Source of the DNA: Labilithrix sp.
Lineage (GTDB): Bacteria; Myxococcota_A; Polyangia; Polyangiales; Polyangiaceae
Assembly (NCBI GenBank): GCA_044227045.1
Contig: JBGAFW010000037.1
Span: 65,129 to 98,911, forward strand
Direction of reading: 5' to 3'
DNA: 33,783 nucleotides
Shown here one piece after another: positions 6,017 through 16,106 of the stretch. Position numbers and translations under genes: made by a program. Numbering within the stretch: the first letter of the stretch is position 1; every line of letters starts with the position of its first letter. The notes beneath the pieces are model-generated. The model saw only the letters and a list, made by a program, of their open reading frames with translations, was not told the DNA's origin and did not search any database.

Positions 6017-7090
6017 TCAAAACCCGTTTGCCTTTTTCGCAACTGCGAAAAGGTCCCCCACTTCGTAGAAGTCGACGCCGATGAAGGTGGGCTGTTGCGT
6101 CGCCTCGAGCGTGCATTGGTTGAACCGTGGACCGAGCACCGCATCCACGTTCACTTCGCGGGCGTATTCGATCTTCGAGGTCGGTGCGCCGAGCCAGTGA
6201 TTGAGGAGAAAGAGCGGGTCGCCTTTCTTTCCTCGATTGAGCCTGCAGGAGAAATCCGCCTGGGTCGCGAACGTGTATGGCGTGTCCCAGATGTTTCCGA
6301 TGAATGCAGAATGCATGTAAGTAGGAGACGCGGGATTGGAGCCAACGCCGCTCTGCTCGAGGAAGATGACGATGCGCTTGTCACTGTCGATGAGCTCGCG
6401 CAGCGTCGGCCACGCGGTCCCTGTCTTGTGCGCGTAGGCGCGCTCGGCGATGCCCGCCTCGCGCAAGACGCCGTCGAGATCCGTGTCGGTCACATAGCTC
6501 TCGAAGATGATCGTCAGCACCTCGGCGGGGTGCTGGTCGAGGAAATCGGTGATGACGCAGAGCTGATCGAGGAGACGCGCTCGCCCGAGCAAACACGAGG
6601 CGTGACAGAGCTCCACTTGATCCATCAAGGTCGCGGTGGCGACGTGCTCGTCGGCGTTGTTCTTCGACTCGGGATCGAAGTAGTGCACGTCGAGCATCAG
6701 GCCGCGAATGCCGTCCTCGAGCTGCTTTGCGATGCCATGGGTCTGGTTTGGAACCGCCCAGCCATCGTCGGCGTTCGACATCGCGTTGTGCGTCATCGGC
6801 ACGACCACGCGATCGTACGAGCGCCCGCACAGCTCCGGCATCCCGTTGCACGCGGATGTCCCTGCGGGGCTGATCTTCGGCTTTCGTGCAGCGCACGTCT
6901 GAGGCAGCGTGCTCGTCGGCGCGGGCGCGGCGGTTTCGGCGCCGGCATCGGCCGCCGTCACCGGCGCGTCCGACGTCGAGCAGCCTGACGCGAAGAAGAA
7001 TGCAGGCGTCGCGATCGCGGAGGCGGACAGAGCGATGATGCCGGCGCGGATAGCAGCGTGTCGTCCTGCCATGGGCTCAGCGTAGCGCAT
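6017..7090 (-). CDS. Lipoprotein with a PLC-like phosphodiesterase (PI-PLC X-domain-like) fold
   Basis: The signal has the lipobox FASGC. The motif MTHNAMS...HG...GIRGLMLDVHY resembles the PI-PLC X-box (xTHNSY ... R.lelD). The start could instead be M7 at 7072. Confidence 0.5.
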   Translation of the reverse strand: MRYAEPMAGRHAAIRAGIIALSASAIATPAFFFASGCSTSDAPVTAADAGAETAAPAPTSTLPQTCAARKPKISPAGTSACNGMPELCGRSYDRVVVPMTHNAMSNADDGWAVPNQTHGIAKQLEDGIRGLMLDVHYFDPESKNNADEHVATATLMDQVELCHASCLLGRARLLDQLCVITDFLDQHPAEVLTIIFESYVTDTDLDGVLREAGIAERAYAHKTGTAWPTLRELIDSDKRIVIFLEQSGVGSNPASPTYMHSAFIGNIWDTPYTFATQADFSCRLNRGKKGDPLFLLNHWLGAPTSKIEYAREVNVDAVLGPRFNQCTLEATQQPTFIGVDFYEVGDLFAVAKKANGF

Positions 7091-7105
7091 GGCTCGCGGC
7101 CGTGT

Positions 7106-7786
7106 TTAGCGCCGGCGAGCGGTGAGCTTCACGACCGAGTGCCATGTCTTCTTCGCGAGCTCGGCGGCATGCGCCGGCGCACGCCCCCGCTTCGTCGCGA
7201 CGAGGAAGCTCGCCGACCCCACGAAGCCAAGGAGGATCATGATGAGAAGAAGACGGACACACCGCCACGCGATCGACGGCGCGCGCGTACGCTGCGTCGT
7301 CGACGCCACCGAGCGCGCGTGGACGACCGAAGATTGCATCGAGACGGCCGGAGACGATCCGGAGTCCCACGAACGAACCCAATCCGGCGGCGGCGGGCGA
7401 TCCGAGGTCGCGATCAACGGTACCGACGCGCGCATCGCACGCATCGACATGGTCGGCGGCGTCGATGGGCCGACCTCGTCGTCGACATCGACAGGGATGC
7501 GATCGCTCCAGGAGACCGGATCGCGAAGCGTGGAGGGGGGTGCCTCGGTGAGCTCGAGGTCGACGAGCGGCGGTGAGGGGTGCACCGGCGTGCTCACGCT
7601 CAGGGCCTTGAGCGACTTGAAGCTCGGACGCACGACGACCGTCGGGGCGTCCTCTTCATCCTCATCCACGACCGCGCGCTCGACGGGCCATTTGCACCCG
7701 AGCCGTCCGACCGATTCACGGACGGATGCCGAGTACAGCCCTTCGATCTGGCTGCTGCGGATGGCCGGGCGCGAGCTTCGGCTCAT
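7106..7786 (-). CDS. Hypothetical tail-anchored membrane protein
   Basis: 226-aa ORF whose minus-strand frame has GC-rich third codon positions. One TM helix (LLLIMILLGFVGSASFLVA) lies near the C-terminus. It sits 15 bp upstream of the next gene on the minus strand, so the two are probably cotranscribed. The overlapping plus-strand ORF 7122-7976 is Ser/Arg/Thr-rich and looks spurious. Confidence 0.4.
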   Translation of the reverse strand: MSRSSRPAIRSSQIEGLYSASVRESVGRLGCKWPVERAVVDEDEEDAPTVVVRPSFKSLKALSVSTPVHPSPPLVDLELTEAPPSTLRDPVSWSDRIPVDVDDEVGPSTPPTMSMRAMRASVPLIATSDRPPPPDWVRSWDSGSSPAVSMQSSVVHARSVASTTQRTRAPSIAWRCVRLLLIMILLGFVGSASFLVATKRGRAPAHAAELAKKTWHSVVKLTARRR

Positions 7787-7924: not shown

Positions 7925-8629
7925 TCAGAACGTCGTGATGCCCGGCGAGCAGAAGTCCTCGGTCGCGTGCGCGTAGTGGTCACGAATGAACGTGGAGAGC
8001 GACGGCGCGTCGACGCATTGCGCTTTGTACGTGAACCCCCAGGCCGTCGCGGCGACGGGCACGTCGAGGTCGGGCCTCGGCACGAGGATCACGCGAACAC
8101 GAATCGACGGATCGCAGCCGGGATCGGTCGCGACTTGATCACGCACCGCTCGCAGCGCGGTGGCGACCTCGGGACAGAGGTCCTTCATCGCGCAGCGGTA
8201 GTAGAGGACGACCGCGCCGTGCTCCATGCTGTGGACGAGGTATCCGTCGAGCACCGGATGATCGTATTCCTGGAAGTTTGCCCATCGCGGATAGTGCGGG
8301 CCGCTCGACGGCGGATTCGTCGCGTACGTGGGGAAGGTGTCCTCGGGGACATGCGTCCCTGGGACGACGATATCAGCGGTGGTCGACACAGCGCACGAGG
8401 CGTCGATGGGCTCCGGCGTCGGCACGGTCGTTGGCGTGGGCTTGGGTCCGAGAGAAGGGGTCGCCACCCGTCGATCGACACTGGCGTCCGCGTCGTTTCG
8501 TGACGATGTTGTTTCGTCGTTGTCGTCCCCACAACCCATCGTGAGCCCGGAGACGAGGAGCAGAGAGAGCAGCCCGGAAAGGAAGAGCAGAGAGACCAGC
8601 GCTGAGCCCCTGAGATCTCGCTTCGCCAT
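7925..8629 (-). CDS. DUF3105-family lipoprotein
   Basis: The signal has the lipobox LTMGC. The motifs SGPHYP and HSMEHGAVVLYY are typical of DUF3105. Confidence 0.55.
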   Translation of the reverse strand: MAKRDLRGSALVSLLFLSGLLSLLLVSGLTMGCGDDNDETTSSRNDADASVDRRVATPSLGPKPTPTTVPTPEPIDASCAVSTTADIVVPGTHVPEDTFPTYATNPPSSGPHYPRWANFQEYDHPVLDGYLVHSMEHGAVVLYYRCAMKDLCPEVATALRAVRDQVATDPGCDPSIRVRVILVPRPDLDVPVAATAWGFTYKAQCVDAPSLSTFIRDHYAHATEDFCSPGITTF

Positions 8630-8778: not shown

Positions 8779-11148
8779 ATGCCCGGCAAAACGACGAACA
8801 CCAACTCGAACAAACAACGCATTCACGAGCTCGAAGGCCTCCTCCGCAAATACAAGGACGCCTACTACAACGGGGAAGCTCTGGTCTCCGACGCAGCGTA
8901 TGACGCGCTCGAAGACGAGCTTCGTGCGCTCGACCCGAACCACGCGATCCTGAAGAGCGTCGGCGCGCCTGTTCGAGCGAAGAAGGTCGAAGAGGTCGAG
9001 GAGGACGAAGGCGCCGTCACCGAGTGGGAGAAGGCCAACCACGCGATCCCGATGGGGTCGCTCAACAAAGCCGTCAACGACGGTGAGTTCCGCCAGTGGG
9101 CCGCGCGATGCGATCAGCTCGCCGCCGAGAGCAAGCTAGGCAAGGTGGCGCAGAACCTCCTCGTCACCGAGAAGCTCGACGGGCTCTCGCTCGCGGTGAA
9201 CTACGAGAAGGGCAAGCTGGTCGAGGCGATCACACGTGGTGACGGTCATGTCGGCGAGCGCATCACCCCGAACGCACGCCGGATGAAGGGCGTCCCGGCG
9301 AAGCTCCCCGAGCCGCTCACGGTCTCGATTCGTGGCGAGATCATCCTGAAGCTCTCCGACATGAAGAAGGCGTGGCCGGGCTACGACAGCCCCCCGCGCA
9401 ACAAAGCGGCGGGCACGTCCAAGCGCTTCGACGGGCAGGGCTGCGAGCACCTCACGGTGATGTTCTACGACCTCGCCGGCGACGAGCAGTTCGCGACGGA
9501 AGAAGACAAATACAAGCGCATCGCCGAGCTTGGCCTGATCGTCCCCGAGTTCACCGTCACCGATCTCGAAGGCGCGCTGAAGATCCACAAGGAGTACGCG
9601 CGTTCGAAGCGCGCAGCCCTCGACTACGAGATCGACGGTCTCGTCATCCGCGCCAACGATCTGCGCACCCAGGAGCTGCTCGGTGAGCTCGGCGGCCGGC
9701 CGCGTGGCGCGGTCGCCTTCAAGTTCGCGTCGATGGCGAAGACCACGAAGGTCATCCAGATCGACTGGGAGACCGGCCCGACGGGACGTGTCACGCCCAT
9801 CGCGACGGTCGAGCCGATCGAAATCGGTGGCGCCGTCGTCCAGCGCGTCGTCCTCCACAACGTGTCGAACATCGAGCGTCTCGGCATCGGCGTCGGCGAC
9901 GAGGTCCTCGTGTCGCGCCGCAACGACGTCATTCCTCATATGGAGGAGGTGGTCGTCAAGCATGGCAAGACGGAGGTCCCACCCACCAACTGCATCACCT
10001 GCGAAGGCGAGCTCGTTCGCAAGGGCGAGTATCTCTGCTGCACCAACCTCGAGTGCAGCGATCTCGTCGAAGGTCGAATTCATCGCTGGGTCGGCGCCCA
10101 AGACATTCACGAATGGGGCGACAAGCTCATCGCCCAGCTCGTCGAGGCAGACCTCGTGCGCGAGCCGGCCGACCTCTACAAGCTCACGGTCGACGACATC
10201 GCCAAGCTCCCGGGGCGCGGCAAGATCATCGGCAAGAAGGTGATCGACAACCTCCACGCCAAGCTCCCGCTGTCGCTTCCACTCTTCCTCGCGTCGCTCG
10301 GCATCGAGGAGTTCGCGCTCGAGACGGCGAAGCTGCTCGTCTCGAAGGGCTACGACACGCTCGAGAAGCTGCAGAGCGCGAACGTCGACGAGATCGCCGC
10401 GATCAAAGGCATGGGCGCGATCCGCGCGAAGCATGTCGTCGGTGGATTGGCGGCGCGCAAAGAGGAGATCGAGCGTCTCCTCGCCGTCGGCGTCGTGCCG
10501 GTCATCCCCGGCGCGAAGGGCGCGGGTGGCCTCGCCGGCAAGAGCTTCTGCTTTACCGGCACGCTCCCACGACCGCGCAAAGAATACGAAGACATGGTCG
10601 AGAAGAACGGCGGCACGCTGCTCTCGGGCGTGACGAAGGAGCTCAACTACCTCGTCATGGCGGATCCGAACTCCGGCTCGACGAAGGCGGAGAAGGCGCG
10701 CAAGTATGGGACCGAGTGCATCAGCGCCGAGCAGTTCATGGAGCTCATCGCCGCGGCCGCTGCGGGTGGTGGCGGCGCCGCGACGAACGGCGCAGGCGTC
10801 TTCGAAGACGAGGGCGAAGACGAAGACGAAGACAAACCGAAGAAGAAGGCGAAGGCCGCGCCAGCGGCATCGTCCGGCTCGCTCTCGACCGCGCTCGAAG
10901 GTAAGACGGTCTGCTTCACCGGCGCGCAGCCACGCAAGCGCTCCGTGCTCGAGCAGATCGTGCAAGACAACGGCGGCACCGTCCTCGATCGCGTCACGAA
11001 GGGGCTCACCTACCTCGTCATGGCCGACCCCGACTCGGAGTCGACGAAGGCACGCAAGGCCCGAGAGTACGGCACCGAATGCATCGATCTGGCCACGCTC
11101 GAGGGCATCATCAAGAAGAACGGCGGCGTCGTCCCCGACGACGAGTGA
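8779..11148 (+). CDS. ligA: NAD-dependent DNA ligase LigA with a duplicated C-terminal BRCT domain
   Basis: Adenylation motif KLDG, OB fold, Cys4 Zn finger (CITCEGE...CCTNLEC), HhH motif (LPGRGKIIGKK). Two near-identical BRCT units (LAGKSFCFTG...YLVMADP / LEGKTVCFTG...YLVMADP) are separated by an acidic/Lys-rich linker. GAGGA lies 8 nt before the ATG. Confidence 0.9.
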   Translation: MPGKTTNTNSNKQRIHELEGLLRKYKDAYYNGEALVSDAAYDALEDELRALDPNHAILKSVGAPVRAKKVEEVEEDEGAVTEWEKANHAIPMGSLNKAVNDGEFRQWAARCDQLAAESKLGKVAQNLLVTEKLDGLSLAVNYEKGKLVEAITRGDGHVGERITPNARRMKGVPAKLPEPLTVSIRGEIILKLSDMKKAWPGYDSPPRNKAAGTSKRFDGQGCEHLTVMFYDLAGDEQFATEEDKYKRIAELGLIVPEFTVTDLEGALKIHKEYARSKRAALDYEIDGLVIRANDLRTQELLGELGGRPRGAVAFKFASMAKTTKVIQIDWETGPTGRVTPIATVEPIEIGGAVVQRVVLHNVSNIERLGIGVGDEVLVSRRNDVIPHMEEVVVKHGKTEVPPTNCITCEGELVRKGEYLCCTNLECSDLVEGRIHRWVGAQDIHEWGDKLIAQLVEADLVREPADLYKLTVDDIAKLPGRGKIIGKKVIDNLHAKLPLSLPLFLASLGIEEFALETAKLLVSKGYDTLEKLQSANVDEIAAIKGMGAIRAKHVVGGLAARKEEIERLLAVGVVPVIPGAKGAGGLAGKSFCFTGTLPRPRKEYEDMVEKNGGTLLSGVTKELNYLVMADPNSGSTKAEKARKYGTECISAEQFMELIAAAAAGGGGAATNGAGVFEDEGEDEDEDKPKKKAKAAPAASSGSLSTALEGKTVCFTGAQPRKRSVLEQIVQDNGGTVLDRVTKGLTYLVMADPDSESTKARKAREYGTECIDLATLEGIIKKNGGVVPDDE

Positions 11149-11230
11149 CCTGGAAAATAGGCCCCGCGTCATGATGGGGAGCCTGAGGACATGGGATCGG
11201 GGTAGGGGGTAACGCTTGTTAGAACGAAGA

Positions 11231-11272
11231 GACTCCTGCGAAAATCATGGTAGGAGTCCTCCTCTCTTTTCC
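11231..11272 (+). terminator. Candidate intrinsic terminator downstream of ligA. It is weak.
   Basis: Stem GACTCCT / AGGAGTC (7 bp, 14-nt loop) is followed by the pyrimidine/T-rich tract CTCCTCTCTTTTCC, about 80 nt after the ligA stop. Confidence 0.25.
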
Positions 11273-11288
11273 TTGGCCACCCGCTCCC

Positions 11289-11352
11289 AACCCTCCCGCT
11301 GATCACGTTCGGTCTCGTACAACCCTCCCGCTGATCACGTTCGGTCTCGTAC
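11289..11352. repeat. Perfect 2 x 32-bp direct tandem duplication (AACCCTCCCGCTGATCACGTTCGGTCTCGTAC), ending 15 nt before the ATP-grasp start codon
   Basis: Exact match seen by eye between 11289-11320 and 11321-11352. Confidence 0.9.
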
Positions 11353-11367
11353 CATCGAGCCTCCATC

Positions 11368-12585
11368 ATGCGCGTCGTATTCCTTTCACCTGCTTATCCC
11401 GTGGACATGATCAAGTTCACGCGTGGCCTCGCCGAGGTCGGAGCGCAGGTCTATGGCGTTGGCGACACCCACCGCGACCAGCTCTCGCCCGCGGTGAAGC
11501 CTTACCTCCACGATTACTTGCAGGTTCCACGCATCCTCGACGAGGGCGATGTGATGGAGCGCATCTCGGGCTGGCTGCGCGGCCGCACGGTCGATCGCGT
11601 GCTCACCAACTGGGAGCCGCTCGTGATGCTCGCCGCTCGGCTCCGCGAACGGTGGGGCATGCCGGGGATGTCGGTCGACACCGTGCGAGCGTTTCGTGAC
11701 AAGGAGATCATGAAGCAGCGCGTTCGTGCTGCGGGCCTTCGCGTCCCGAAGTCACGCCGCGTGCACACCGCCGCGCAGGTGCGAGAGACGGCGGAGGAGT
11801 TTGGCTATCCGCTCATCTTGAAGCCGATCGCCGGCGCTGGCTGCGCCGACACCTACGAGGTCCGCAGCGTCGCCGAGCTCGAGCAGGTGCTCCCACGCCT
11901 CGGCGGATTGCCCGAGGCGTCTTGCGAGGAGTACATCGAAGGCGAAGAGCTCACCTACGACACGATCTGCATCGATGGCAAAGCGAAGATGGAGAATGTG
12001 TCCCAGTACTTCCCGAAGCCACTCGAAGCGCGCACGCACGAGTGGATCAGCCCGATCGCGATCAGCGTCCGCGATCTGACGCAGCCCCGCCTTCAGGCCG
12101 GCCTCGCGCTCGGCCGCGCCGTGAACGACGTGCTCAAGATGGGCGACGGCTTCACGCACATGGAGTGGTACCTCACACCCAAAGGTGAGGCGGTGTTTGG
12201 TGAGATTGGATGCCGTCCAGGCGGCGCCGGCCTCGTCGACCAAATGAACTACACGTTCGACGCCGACCTCTTTCGCGAGTGGGCACGCGTGTGCTGTTGG
12301 GGGCACTTCGAGGCGAGCACCGAGCGCAAGTACAACGTCGGCATCGTCTTCAAGCGCGCCCAGGGCTGGGGCTACATCACACGCATCGAAGGCCTACAAA
12401 ATTGGCTGCGCATGTGTGGCCGATGGGTCGTCGAGGAGAGCCTCCTCAAGCCCGGCACGCATCGTCGCGACTGGAAGCAGACGCAAACCTCCGACGGGCA
12501 CGTCGTCGTGCGTCATCCCGACTGGGACGAGGCGCTCCGCATGTGCTACGCGGCCGCGACCGACATCAAGATGTACGCGCAATGA
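11368..12585 (+). CDS. ATP-grasp domain protein (carboxylate-amine ligase, or L-amino-acid-ligase-like)
   Basis: 405 aa. ATP-grasp signatures present: GYPLILKP.AGAG, EEYIEGEE, and ME.YLTPKGEAVFGEIGCRPGG. GC3 is high. Confidence 0.7.
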   Translation: MRVVFLSPAYPVDMIKFTRGLAEVGAQVYGVGDTHRDQLSPAVKPYLHDYLQVPRILDEGDVMERISGWLRGRTVDRVLTNWEPLVMLAARLRERWGMPGMSVDTVRAFRDKEIMKQRVRAAGLRVPKSRRVHTAAQVRETAEEFGYPLILKPIAGAGCADTYEVRSVAELEQVLPRLGGLPEASCEEYIEGEELTYDTICIDGKAKMENVSQYFPKPLEARTHEWISPIAISVRDLTQPRLQAGLALGRAVNDVLKMGDGFTHMEWYLTPKGEAVFGEIGCRPGGAGLVDQMNYTFDADLFREWARVCCWGHFEASTERKYNVGIVFKRAQGWGYITRIEGLQNWLRMCGRWVVEESLLKPGTHRRDWKQTQTSDGHVVVRHPDWDEALRMCYAAATDIKMYAQ

Positions 12586-13511: not shown

Positions 13512-14771
13512 ATGATGACCGCCCAACACACGAAGCTCCAGCGCTCGAGCTCGAGGCTCCTGAGCTCGAAGGTGAAGCCCGCGCTCACGCTGGCGTTCGG
13601 GCTCCTCCTCGCGTGCGCCGCGTTCGTCATCCACATGCGGCTCACGCGTGTCGTCGCGAAGCCCTCCGCGCCACCGCAGCTCGCCGGCCATCACGTCGTG
13701 TCGGACGACGTCGGCGGGCTCGACGAGGTGTTGATGCACTACGTGCCGGAGCTCGAGCCGGTATTCGATGTAACCTACAAGGACTTTCTCGGTACCCTCC
13801 CGCCCGAGACGCGGCTCGTGTTCGTCATTCAACGAGGTCGCCGCGCCTCGCTCGACGCGTTCCTGCGTCGCATCGGCGCCCAGACGCGCCTCGAAGCGGG
13901 ACGAGGCCGCGTCGTCGAGCTCGACGTCCCGATCGGCATCTGGTCGAAGGATCGCGCGCTCGTCCTCGCGAGCGACCGCGATCCGCGTGCGAGCATGCTC
14001 CTCGTTCCACCAAAACCCCAAACGGGCGACGGCGCGACGCTGGGAGCGTCAGGGTCGTCACGTCCCTTCGATTGGCAAATCATCCCGGCGGTGGCCCGCG
14101 CGATGCCCGACCGCGGCTTCGAGGTGAAGGAGCTGCCGCTCGCGTTCGACGCCGGCGACTTCGCGATCGCGGGCAACAAAGTCATCTTCGACGCGAACCT
14201 CCTCGGCCGCAACCGCACGCGTGGCTACGCGACCGCCGCGGCGCTTCACGAAAAGATGCGTGCGCTGCTCGGTCGTGACGTCGTGATGCTCGGCACCGAA
14301 GAAGGCGACGTGCCTCGTCATCACATGTCGATGTACATGGCGCCGCTGCCTGGAGGCACCGTCCTCGTCGGCGACCCCTCGCTCGCCGAGCGCATCGTCG
14401 GCAAGGGCTACGTGCCAGGAGAGACGAGCGTCGAGACGGGCCAAGCGCTCACCGCGGACTTCTCCGCAGCGACGCAAGCCCGCTTCGACCGCGCCGCGCG
14501 CGACCTGACGCGAGCCGGCTTCCACGTCGTGCGCGTCCCGAACGTTCCGTTCGACGACAAAACGTACTTCGCCTACACGAACGGCGTGTACGAGACGCGC
14601 GGCGGCCATCGCCGAGCGTGGGTCCCGAAGCTCGACGTACCCGACCTCGACCGCGCCGCGTTCCGCGTCTACGAGGACCAAGGCTTCGAGGTCATCCCCA
14701 TCAACGTACGCAAGGTGTATCCCCAACACGGCACGATCGGCTGCCTGGTCAACGTGCTCTCCCGAAGCTGA
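13512..14771 (+). CDS. Membrane-anchored guanidino-group-modifying enzyme superfamily (pentein fold) protein. It resembles the agmatine deiminase / peptidyl-arginine deiminase family.
   Basis: N-terminal TM helix (LTLAFGLLLACAAFVI). IWSKDRA resembles the W.RD motif. A Cys lies near the C-terminus in G.IGC (HGTIGCLV), which looks like the catalytic-Cys motif of that superfamily. The family assignment is tentative. Confidence 0.45.
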   Translation: MMTAQHTKLQRSSSRLLSSKVKPALTLAFGLLLACAAFVIHMRLTRVVAKPSAPPQLAGHHVVSDDVGGLDEVLMHYVPELEPVFDVTYKDFLGTLPPETRLVFVIQRGRRASLDAFLRRIGAQTRLEAGRGRVVELDVPIGIWSKDRALVLASDRDPRASMLLVPPKPQTGDGATLGASGSSRPFDWQIIPAVARAMPDRGFEVKELPLAFDAGDFAIAGNKVIFDANLLGRNRTRGYATAAALHEKMRALLGRDVVMLGTEEGDVPRHHMSMYMAPLPGGTVLVGDPSLAERIVGKGYVPGETSVETGQALTADFSAATQARFDRAARDLTRAGFHVVRVPNVPFDDKTYFAYTNGVYETRGGHRRAWVPKLDVPDLDRAAFRVYEDQGFEVIPINVRKVYPQHGTIGCLVNVLSRS

Positions 14772-14937
14772 GCCACGCTGGCGCGGGTTGGCCACGCTGG
14801 CGCGGGTTGGCCACGCTGGCGCGGGTTGGCCACGCTGGCGTGGGTAGGCCACGCTGGCGTGGGTGGGCCACGCTGGCGCGGGTGGGCCACGCTGGCGCGG
14901 GTGGGCCACGCTGGCGCGGGTGGGCCACGCTGGCGCG
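14772..14937. repeat. 19-bp tandem array (GCCACGCTGGCGCGGGTTG), 8 full copies plus a partial one. It starts on the base after the stop codon of the upstream CDS.
   Basis: Unit starts fall at 14772, 14791, 14810, 14829, 14848, 14867, 14886 and 14905, with a partial unit at 14924. Variant units differ by 1-2 nt (cgcgggttg, cgtgggtag, cgcgggtgg). Confidence 0.9.
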
Positions 14938-16106
14938 AGTTACCCCACGCGGATTCGCGAAACGCCTTGGTTGAAAAGGGTGAAAGAAGAGAGAGACGTG
15001 CGTCAGGTTGAGCGCGGGCTCGCGAAAGCACCTTGGTTGAAAAGGGTGGTCCGTGGAAAACGAGCAGGTTGGGCCACGCTGGGCGCGAGACCTTGGTTGA
15101 AAAGGGTCGTTCGACAAAACACGTCGTGGAACGACCACGCACGGTCCGACAGCCGCCAGCGACCGACGCCAGCGCGAGCTGAGTCGCCACTGGGCGAAAA
15201 CGCCTTTGTTGAAAAGGGAGAGCCCTGCACGTCGGCGACCGCGCTGGCGCGGGTAGGCCACGCTGGCGCGGGTAGGCCACGCTGGCGCGGGTCGCCACGC
15301 GGGCGCGGGTCGCCACGCAGGCGCGAGTTAACCCACGCGGATTCGCGAAACGCCTTGGTTGAAAAGGGTGGAGGAACCGCTCGACGAAACACGTCCTTAG
15401 AACCAGCGCGAGCTCTGGGGAAGAGGGTGGAGAGCACCCATGCACGGGGTTGCACGCTGGCGCCGCTGGGCGCGAAATACCCTGGTTGAAAAGGGTCGTT
15501 CGGAAACGCATCTGTGGACGACCCGCGGTCTGATGCATGCGCCAGCGACCGACGCCCGCCAGCGCGAGCACCTCTGAGCCGCGCGCGCCGCCTCGCGTCA
15601 CTTCGCGAAAACGCCTTTGCTGAAAAGGGGAAAACCGCGCGGCTTGGCCACGCTGGCGTGGGTTGGCCGCGCTGGCGCGGGTTACGCTGGCGCGAACACC
15701 TGGTTGAAAAGGTGGAGGATCCGTTCGACGAAACGCGTCTTTGAACGAGCGCGCGGCGTCACTTCGCGAAAACGCCTTTGTTGAAAAGGGTGGACCCTGC
15801 GCACGGCTGCGACGCGTGGGTTGGCCACTCTGGCGTGGGTTGGCCACGACGGCGCGGGTTGGCTACGACGGCGCTGGATGAAGGCGCGGCGAGCTTCGGG
15901 CGAAAACGCCGTTGTTGAGAAGGGTGAACCCTGCGCACTGCTTGGCCACGCTGGCGCGGGTCGGCTGGGTTCGCGAGAGGTATCGGCGAGCTCGAGGGGC
16001 GCCAAGATCTGGATCTCGCCGCGCCTCTCGTCCAGCGCGCGAGCGAAAACACCTTTGTTGAAAAGGGTGAAGGCCACGCTGGCGCGGGTCGGCCATGCTG
16101 GCGTGG
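14772..16106. repeat. Composite higher-order tandem repeat region. It has 19-mer GC-rich arrays in several places. It has 11 copies of a 28-bp motif (about CGCGAAAACGCCTTTGTTGAAAAGGGTG) with core TTGAAAAGGGTG. It also has degenerate units of roughly 130-200 bp.
   Basis: Core copies fall at 14971, 15037, 15097, 15208, 15359, 15486, 15620, 15704, 15781, 15915 and 16058. Extra 19-mer clusters lie at 15246-15318, 15645-15688, 15817-15875 and 16072-16106. Block 14925-14990 is duplicated at 15300-15370, and 15088-15270 resembles 15474-15680. Confidence 0.85.

Follow-up and report, generated by a model that had tools for sequence, protein, structure and literature searches.

What is a perfect tandem duplication of 32 bp doing directly ahead of an ATP-grasp gene in Labilithrix sp.? 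The initial annotation of this DNA described two identical 32-bp units that end 15 nt before an ATG at 11368, with no obvious Shine-Dalgarno (SD) sequence. It took the duplication to be recent, and it suggested that the repeat might double a promoter or operator element, lie in a 5' leader, or act as a slippage-prone switch on expression. We followed this up in the window, by which we mean the whole 33,783-nt stretch of DNA that was analysed, and in related loci from other assemblies. The reading that we favour, with a probability of about one half, is that the repeat would be a fixed and fairly old duplication of promoter-proximal DNA. The core promoter would lie in the proximal copy and the spacer next to it, and the consequences would be neutral or mild, rather than those of a switch.

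The repeat is as first described. Tandem Repeats Finder returned a period of 32, 2.0 copies, 100% matches, and a score of 130 at 11288-11352. The 32-nt unit, AACCCTCCCGCTGATCACGTTCGGTCTCGTAC, occupies 11289-11320 and 11321-11352 in two identical copies. The whole window holds no further match to it, even with 3 mismatches, and 100 shuffles gave 0 matches. The local order from 5' to 3' is ...cccgctccc, AACCCTCCCGCTGATCACGTTCGGTCTCGTAC, AACCCTCCCGCTGATCACGTTCGGTCTCGTAC, CATCGAGCCTCCATC, ATG. There is one base of extra periodicity (C at 11288, 11320, and 11352), which gives 1 nt of microhomology at the junction. The 15 nt that separate the repeat from the ATG were also confirmed, and there is no purine-rich SD in the sequence upstream of the ATG. 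The repeat sits in the 219-nt intergenic spacer between ligA and the ATP-grasp gene, which bears out its description as non-coding DNA that adjoins the ATP-grasp start. The flanking genes are as follows.

8779..11148, plus strand: NAD-dependent DNA ligase of the LigA type, with two BRCT domains (Pfam DNA_ligase_aden, DNA_ligase_OB, HHH, and two BRCT matches)
11368..12585, plus strand: ATP-grasp gene of uncharacterised function, 405 aa (Pfam ATP-grasp_3, ATPgrasp_N, and related families)

The start of the ATP-grasp gene is secure, because ATG 11368 is the first possible start of the open reading frame (ORF) after the upstream in-frame stop and agrees with the MRVVFL start of its homologues. There are 5956 of these, mostly of 405 aa, from Labilithrix and other Polyangia/Myxococcota. 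Every match of the protein in NCBIfam fell far under its cut-off.

Exact-protein look-ups yielded four more assemblies from this species-level clade, each from a separate sample: L001 (JGI 3300006092), L087 (JGI 3300009870), L088 (Logan SRR27900776), and L090 (Logan SRR26871262). Together with the window they form three roughly equidistant lineages, which are the window itself, L001 with L087 and L088, and L090. Between lineages, 7.4 to 8.1% of third positions differ in the ligase gene and 4.9 to 9.1% in the ATP-grasp gene. Two units were found in all five assemblies (assembled consensus sequences from five samples and three lineages). An assembly artefact is excluded, because the four other assemblies come from other samples and carry the same duplication with SNPs of their own. 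In L001 and L088 the copies differ by 1 substitution (T to C in copy 2), and in L087 they differ by 2 (the T to C in copy 2, and C to G in copy 1). Copy 1 of L090 has lost 7 nt (the central GCTGA, an A, and a G) and has 2 substitutions, with its ends, AACCCTCCC and GGTCTCGCAC, still recognisable; copy 2 of L090 has one extra C. Apart from the decay of copy 1 in L090, the repeat has no length polymorphism.

Since all three lineages carry two units, the duplication, as judged by this divergence, is old and predates the split of lineages that differ at about 5 to 9% of silent sites. The initial claim that a perfect duplication is recent does not hold here, and the general lesson is that a perfect tandem duplication need not be recent. 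Under neutrality, 64 nt at ~3% divergence per lineage would show no difference at all with a probability of ~0.1 to 0.2. The perfect identity in the window probably represents the retained ancestral state, later homogenisation being less parsimonious. The polarity could also be the reverse, with the decayed L090 copy ancestral and the window and L001 lineages homogenised later.

A BLAST search with the spacer against 86 loci (83 of them ATP-grasp loci) found L001 as the sole homologue, and the spacer was not alignable beyond the species-level clade. Because it can be aligned only inside the clade, more distant relatives set no bound on how old the duplication is. The 32-nt unit is absent from 83 related loci, and a metagenome scan for the unit CCCTCCCGCTGATCACGTYCGG gave only 3 matches, all chance 22-mers in otherwise unrelated sequence. 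We also looked for an older, degenerate third copy ahead of copy 1, but local alignments there were no better than shuffles (P = 0.27 to 0.95). A mobile-element footprint was rejected too. Nothing is inserted between the two adjoining copies, terminal inverted repeats are absent, and the window has no other copy with up to 3 mismatches.

These data bear directly on whether the repeat is a slippage-prone copy-number switch (phase variation) like the promoter tandem repeats of Mycobacterium tuberculosis. Perfect tandem copies lend themselves to slippage and unequal exchange, and the place of the repeat near a probably leaderless start mirrors that of a 58-bp repeat 12 bp upstream of M. tuberculosis lpdA (PMC12817950). 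The segment from the hairpin block to copy 1 (11271-11288) is also unusually variable, at 8 of 19 columns. However, the five assemblies from five samples have exactly two units each, and there is no 1- or 3-copy allele. The copies have gathered substitutions and deletions and have not been homogenised or turned over. Nor is the repeat a family trait, since only one other tandem repeat of at least 20 nt was found within 250 nt upstream among 81 related loci. A switch is therefore unsupported, and we consider it very improbable. The initial annotation had held that a regulatory switch would be unlikely if orthologous loci all carried the duplication and the transcription start site (TSS) lay downstream of it. 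The first half of that statement is borne out, as every conspecific locus has the duplication.

The same assemblies allowed a comparison of the flanking genes. Between the window and L001, the ATP-grasp gene has 21 differences in 1215 nt, all of them synonymous, with 0 non-synonymous changes. By this measure the gene is clearly under purifying selection, and so it must be expressed. L087 has an in-frame deletion of 114 nt (38 codons) near the 3' end of this gene, at window-equivalent positions 12408-12521, which gives a 367-aa product. In the ligase gene, 10531-10722 and 10894-11085 have ~70% DNA similarity, and the second C-terminal BRCT domain looks like an internal duplication. The ligase linker holds a CGAAGA hexanucleotide array of 8.8 copies (10803-10854), and of the 100-nt bins compared between the window and L001, the linker is the one that diverges most (18 differences).

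To see how constraint is distributed across the spacer, we counted variable columns in an alignment of the four long assemblies. At third codon positions, 125 of 1053 were variable (11.9%). The first 80 columns of the spacer are neutral-like (10 of 80), and they are followed by an invariant block that contains a predicted hairpin and a CT tract (11228-11270; 0 of 43, P = 0.006). Variation is high at 11271-11320, which includes copy 1 (22 of 51). Within it, the stretch between the invariant block and copy 1 (11271-11288) has 8 of 19 columns variable, compared with the 11.9% at third codon positions. The parts of the repeat and its right flank are as follows.

11289..11320, plus strand: distal copy of the 32-nt unit (copy 1), identical to copy 2 in the window; 14 of 32 columns variable across lineages
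11321..11352, plus strand: proximal copy of the 32-nt unit (copy 2); 2 of 33 columns variable, a T to C change at 11341 (L001, L087, and L088) and an extra C (L090)
11353..11367, plus strand: 15-nt spacer CATCGAGCCTCCATC from the repeat to the ATG, without SD; 0 of 15 columns variable
11343..11361, plus strand: small inverted repeat GGTCTCG-TACCAT-CGAGCC, left arm within the unit and right arm in the unique flank; a 6-bp hairpin in the predicted fold

Copy 1 taken alone is thus far more variable than copy 2 or the 15-nt spacer. Copy 2 and the 15-nt spacer together have 2 of 48 columns variable (P = 0.08, marginal on its own). The comparisons show a genuine and old repeat with a stable copy number, in which the proximal copy is conserved whereas the distal copy is decaying. 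The alignment indicates that the proximal copy is kept, that the distal copy is free to decay, and that one copy suffices. A conserved proximal copy beside a decaying distal one may serve to locate the functional promoter or initiation region without experiment.

The pattern of constraint also bears on a doubled regulator site. The duplication would provide either two TGATCA sites 32 bp apart or an extra left half-site of GGTCTCG-TACCAT-CGAGCC, which might allow cooperative binding or titration. Each unit does contain the 6-bp palindrome TGATCA, and 32 bp is close to 3 x 10.5, so that the two sites would be three helical turns apart and on one face of the helix. The lineages do not vary in the inverted repeat around TACCAT, and the proximal block is conserved. 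However, the distal copy in L090 has lost exactly the TGATCA core while its ATP-grasp frame is intact to the contig end, so two sites are not required. The palindromes are short and not statistically unusual, there is no adjacent regulator gene, and no such motif is conserved upstream of 81 related genes. We therefore regard operator doubling as improbable. The initial annotation had offered promoter or operator duplication and a 5' leader location as alternatives; a promoter or leader location is plausible, whereas the operator does not fare well against the L090 distal copy. The inverted repeat itself, unchanged in all lineages, may be a chance occurrence, and the fold of the whole region is not significant (z = -0.85).

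There is another palindromic element nearby, inside the ATP-grasp coding sequence. It is a 22-nt near-palindrome, CGTGGACATGATCAAGTTCACG, at 11400-11421, which encodes the conserved PVDMIKFT. Its core, TGATCAAGTTC, and the TGATCACGTTC of each repeat unit are alike at 10 of 11 positions, a likeness that is probably due to chance.

We ran a motif search on 150-nt upstream regions from 81 related ATP-grasp genes (L002-L083; GTDB species representatives and metagenomes). It returned a family motif, C[AG]TG[GA]TA[GA], which is extended -10-like (TGnTA) and comes without an SD. The best TGnTA motif match ends 5 to 15 nt ahead of the ATG in 43 of the 81 loci, compared with ~6 expected if positions were uniform. 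A motif at that distance would place the TSS at the ATG or a few nucleotides away, which suggests that the ATP-grasp family across Myxococcota may use leaderless or very short-leader mRNAs. Paralogues with the motif ~20 nt upstream have an AGGA-like SD. Elsewhere in the window, some genes have TATACT, TACAGT, or TAACAT ahead of their starts (7, 10, and 9 nt, respectively) without an SD, and further genes have clear GAGGA or GGGAGA SDs. The absent SD and the CCTCC strings ahead of the ATG at 11368, on which the initial annotation had remarked, thus appear unremarkable for the ATP-grasp family and would fit a family- and genome-wide leaderless or short-leader pattern. A motif that abuts the ATP-grasp start codon is also useful for start-site annotation in Myxococcota genomes.

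The spacer offers the following candidates and associated features, scored where stated against the family motif as a position weight matrix (PWM).

11350..11355, plus strand: TACCAT, candidate -10 element; the only TAnnnT hexamer in the 219-nt spacer, 12 nt ahead of the ATG
11318..11323, plus strand: TACAAC, duplicated half of the candidate -10 without the final T, at the junction of copy 1 and copy 2; the surrounding 12-mer scores 2.5 bits against the PWM
11246..11257, plus strand: CATGGTAGGAGT, the best family-motif match in the spacer and an alternative upstream promoter candidate; 11.2 bits, 110 nt ahead of the ATG
11231..11259, plus strand: conserved 9-bp stem-loop GACTCCTGC...GGTAGGAGTC and then a CT-rich tail, CTCCTCTCTTTTCC; a predicted fold, not significant for the whole region (z = -0.9)

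TACCAT straddles the right boundary of the repeat, taking TAC from the unit and CAT from the unique flank. MAFFT aligned it with the TAGAAAT of the closest orthologues. It is a weak candidate, with 3.6 bits against the family motif PWM, no TG extension, and no -35-like hexamer. A sigma-70 and terminator consensus scan of 11000-11500 returned 0 promoter-like and 0 terminator-like sites, and thus did not pick up the stem-loop at 11231-11259 either. We checked the unit by eye for other promoter types and rejected a sigma-54 promoter (the GG-to-GC distance is 4 nt too short) and an ECF-type promoter (AAC-N14-CGT is too short).

CATGGTAGGAGT raises the possibility, which we hold only tentatively, that the repeat lies instead inside a 5' untranslated leader of ~105 nt. 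Transcription would then start at ~11263 from the conserved extended -10-like motif TGGTAGGAGT / TGGTAGGAG (11248-11256). TGGTAGGAG would be the true homologue of the ATG-abutting promoter in relatives, with ~100 nt, including the duplicated unit, inserted behind it. This leader would be pyrimidine-rich, weakly structured, and without an SD, and the conserved proximal copy would belong to its translation-initiation region. CATGGTAGGAGT is indeed the top PWM match in the spacer, and its 11.2 bits are reached by 3.4% of shuffled spacers (a chance of ~0.03) and by 3 plus-strand sites in the 33.8-kb window. Read by eye, the CATGGTAGGAGT region is identical at 11 of 13 positions to the CATGGTAGAAATC of two related loci (L005 and L006). 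It lies within the 0-of-43-variable block, the most conserved in the spacer. The segment 11259-11367 is 72% pyrimidine, and the predicted fold is weak (-21.6 kcal/mol for 138 nt, z = -0.85). If 11264-11364 were removed, the ATG would fall 9 nt past TAGGAG, which is the geometry of L005 and L006 (again read by eye).

However, the CATGGTAGGAGT motif doubles as the 3' arm of the conserved 9-bp hairpin, which is possibly the predicted terminator of ligA, and this alone could explain its conservation. The final T is missing from the hexamer TAGGAG. Without an SD, a 105-nt leader would need SD-independent initiation, whereas paralogues with leaders of only ~20 nt carry AGGA. No terminal inverted repeats bound the supposed insertion, and the repeat unit has no other copy in the window. 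A miniature inverted-repeat element (MITE) or target-site duplication marked by the CCTCC pair at 11259 and 11360 was rejected as well, for terminal inverted repeats are lacking and this C-rich stretch has many CCTCC strings.

For productive expression we would favour TACCAT over CATGGTAGGAGT, because leadered relatives use an SD and the conserved 47-nt block has none. Paralogues with a leader of ~20 nt carry an AGGA-like SD, and so the conserved SD-less 47 nt would fit a short leader better than a long one. This is a close call, and both candidate promoters could be active.

We also considered whether the repeat functions as RNA or as coding sequence. It is not a peptide repeat, as the initial annotation had recognised; 32 cannot be divided by 3, and 1-nt indels in L001, L087, and L088 disrupt the ORFs that overlap the repeat on either strand. 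A plus-strand ORF of 150 aa over the repeat is likewise broken by indels in relatives. On the minus strand, the repeat might belong to a purine-rich, GGGAGGG-containing antisense RNA or to a 66-aa ORF (11169..11369). That ORF does exist, GGA is common on the minus strand, and the hairpin could terminate transcription in both directions. However, the ORF is interrupted by 1-nt insertions in L001 (by window positions 11204 and 11272, the latter shared with L087 and L088), and the 32-nt duplication itself shifts its frame. There is no Rfam match, even at E<=10, and no strong minus-strand promoter-motif match points into the repeat. A minus-strand transcript or gene is thus scarcely credible. A structured RNA leader (riboswitch, attenuator, or small RNA) was rejected too. 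Rfam gave no match at the gathering threshold anywhere in the window, nor any at E<=10 in 11100-11450, and the folds of the putative leader and the spacer were not significant (z = -0.85 and -0.90). A tRNA/tmRNA scan found none.

We propose the following history for the locus. A 32-bp segment, at roughly -41 to -10 of the proximal promoter, would have been duplicated in a single event, probably by replication slippage or by unequal exchange with 1 nt of microhomology at the junction. This would have left the proximal promoter unchanged and displaced the older upstream sequence by 32 bp (about three helical turns). As a by-product, it would have created a second, crippled promoter copy with a -10 that reads TACAAC. 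The duplication would then have become fixed, and the dispensable distal copy would have drifted and, in L090, been partly deleted. The functional element would be the proximal copy with the 15-nt spacer, most likely a core promoter with its -10, TACCAT, at 11350-11355. The mRNA is probably leaderless or has a very short leader, as in relatives, and this proposed architecture would explain why there is no SD. The effect of the duplication on expression is probably nil or small, and the repeat would be at most a mild quantitative modifier. We infer from the sequence comparisons above where the promoter lies, that the mRNA is leaderless, and that any effect is small.

The significance of the duplication beyond this locus is small, and it is an ordinary feature. 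The window contains a much stranger set of repeats at 14772-16100, a ~1.3-kb repeat-packed non-coding stretch directly after the stop of the ORF at 13512..14771. It has four arrays of a 19-nt unit, GCCACGCTGGCGCGGGTGG, one with 8.7 copies at 97% identity (14772-14937) and the others at 15242, 15637, and 15810. Between these arrays are ~11 dispersed copies of a ~27-nt motif, GCGAAAACGCCTT(T/G)GTTGAAAAGGGTG. The 19-mer GCCACGCTGGCGCGGGTGG also occurs in L001, at 7037-7134. Another tandem repeat, at 8544-8600, has 2.1 copies of a 27-nt unit with 86% identity. It is in frame (9 codons) and lies in the N-terminal part of a DUF3105 gene (7925..8629, minus strand).

Several known systems resemble this locus in part. 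Tandem promoters, such as the P1/P2 arrangements of rrn or gal, are pairs of complete promoters with a -10 each. Here too, the candidate promoter region has a near-copy 32 bp upstream of it. Unlike in those arrangements, the distal copy ends in TACAAC and not in TAnnnT, it is dispensable in L090, and its sequence gives no sign that it would fire. The classical contingency loci, which include simple-sequence repeats in promoters of Neisseria, Haemophilus, and Bordetella, have units of 1 to 9 nt in many copies and high slippage rates. The Labilithrix repeat is like them in being in or near candidate core promoter elements, where it could alter promoter geometry. It differs in being a two-copy duplication of 32 nt that is stable across lineages.

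The closest comparison is with the promoter tandem repeats (PTRs) of M. tuberculosis, which include a 58-bp repeat (VNTR3690) 12 bp upstream of lpdA and a 54- to 56-bp repeat 29 bp upstream of cysG (PMC12817950). These lie close upstream of leaderless promoters, and their copy number varies among strains and within cultures and is linked to changes in expression (PMC12817950). A second copy of the lpdA repeat raised expression-linked biofilm biomass (PMC12817950). The duplication described here is similar in that it is head-to-tail, tens of base pairs long, non-coding, in a high-GC bacterium, and close to the start (15 bp, compared with 12 and 29 bp). The repeated DNA can also be read as candidate promoter DNA, as with the leaderless promoters of the mycobacterial repeats. 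In contrast to those repeats, this one has two units in each of the five assemblies, and its distal copy is decaying. The unit is also shorter, and its right end cuts the candidate -10, so that the distal copy would be an incomplete promoter. The locus is thus a promoter-proximal tandem duplication of the general PTR kind and not a phase-variable repeat, with the anatomy shared but not the variation in copy number. It is unlikely that it represents a full myxobacterial counterpart of PTRs, in which a promoter-proximal unit of a leaderless gene would be duplicated now and then, would tune expression for as long as both copies stayed intact, and would then decay distally in a cycle of birth and decay, with copy-number heterogeneity to be seen only in the reads, or else an in-phase pair of TGATCA operators for some regulator of the ATP-grasp enzyme. 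If copy number did affect expression, then the promoter tandem repeat idea would extend from mycobacteria to myxobacteria.
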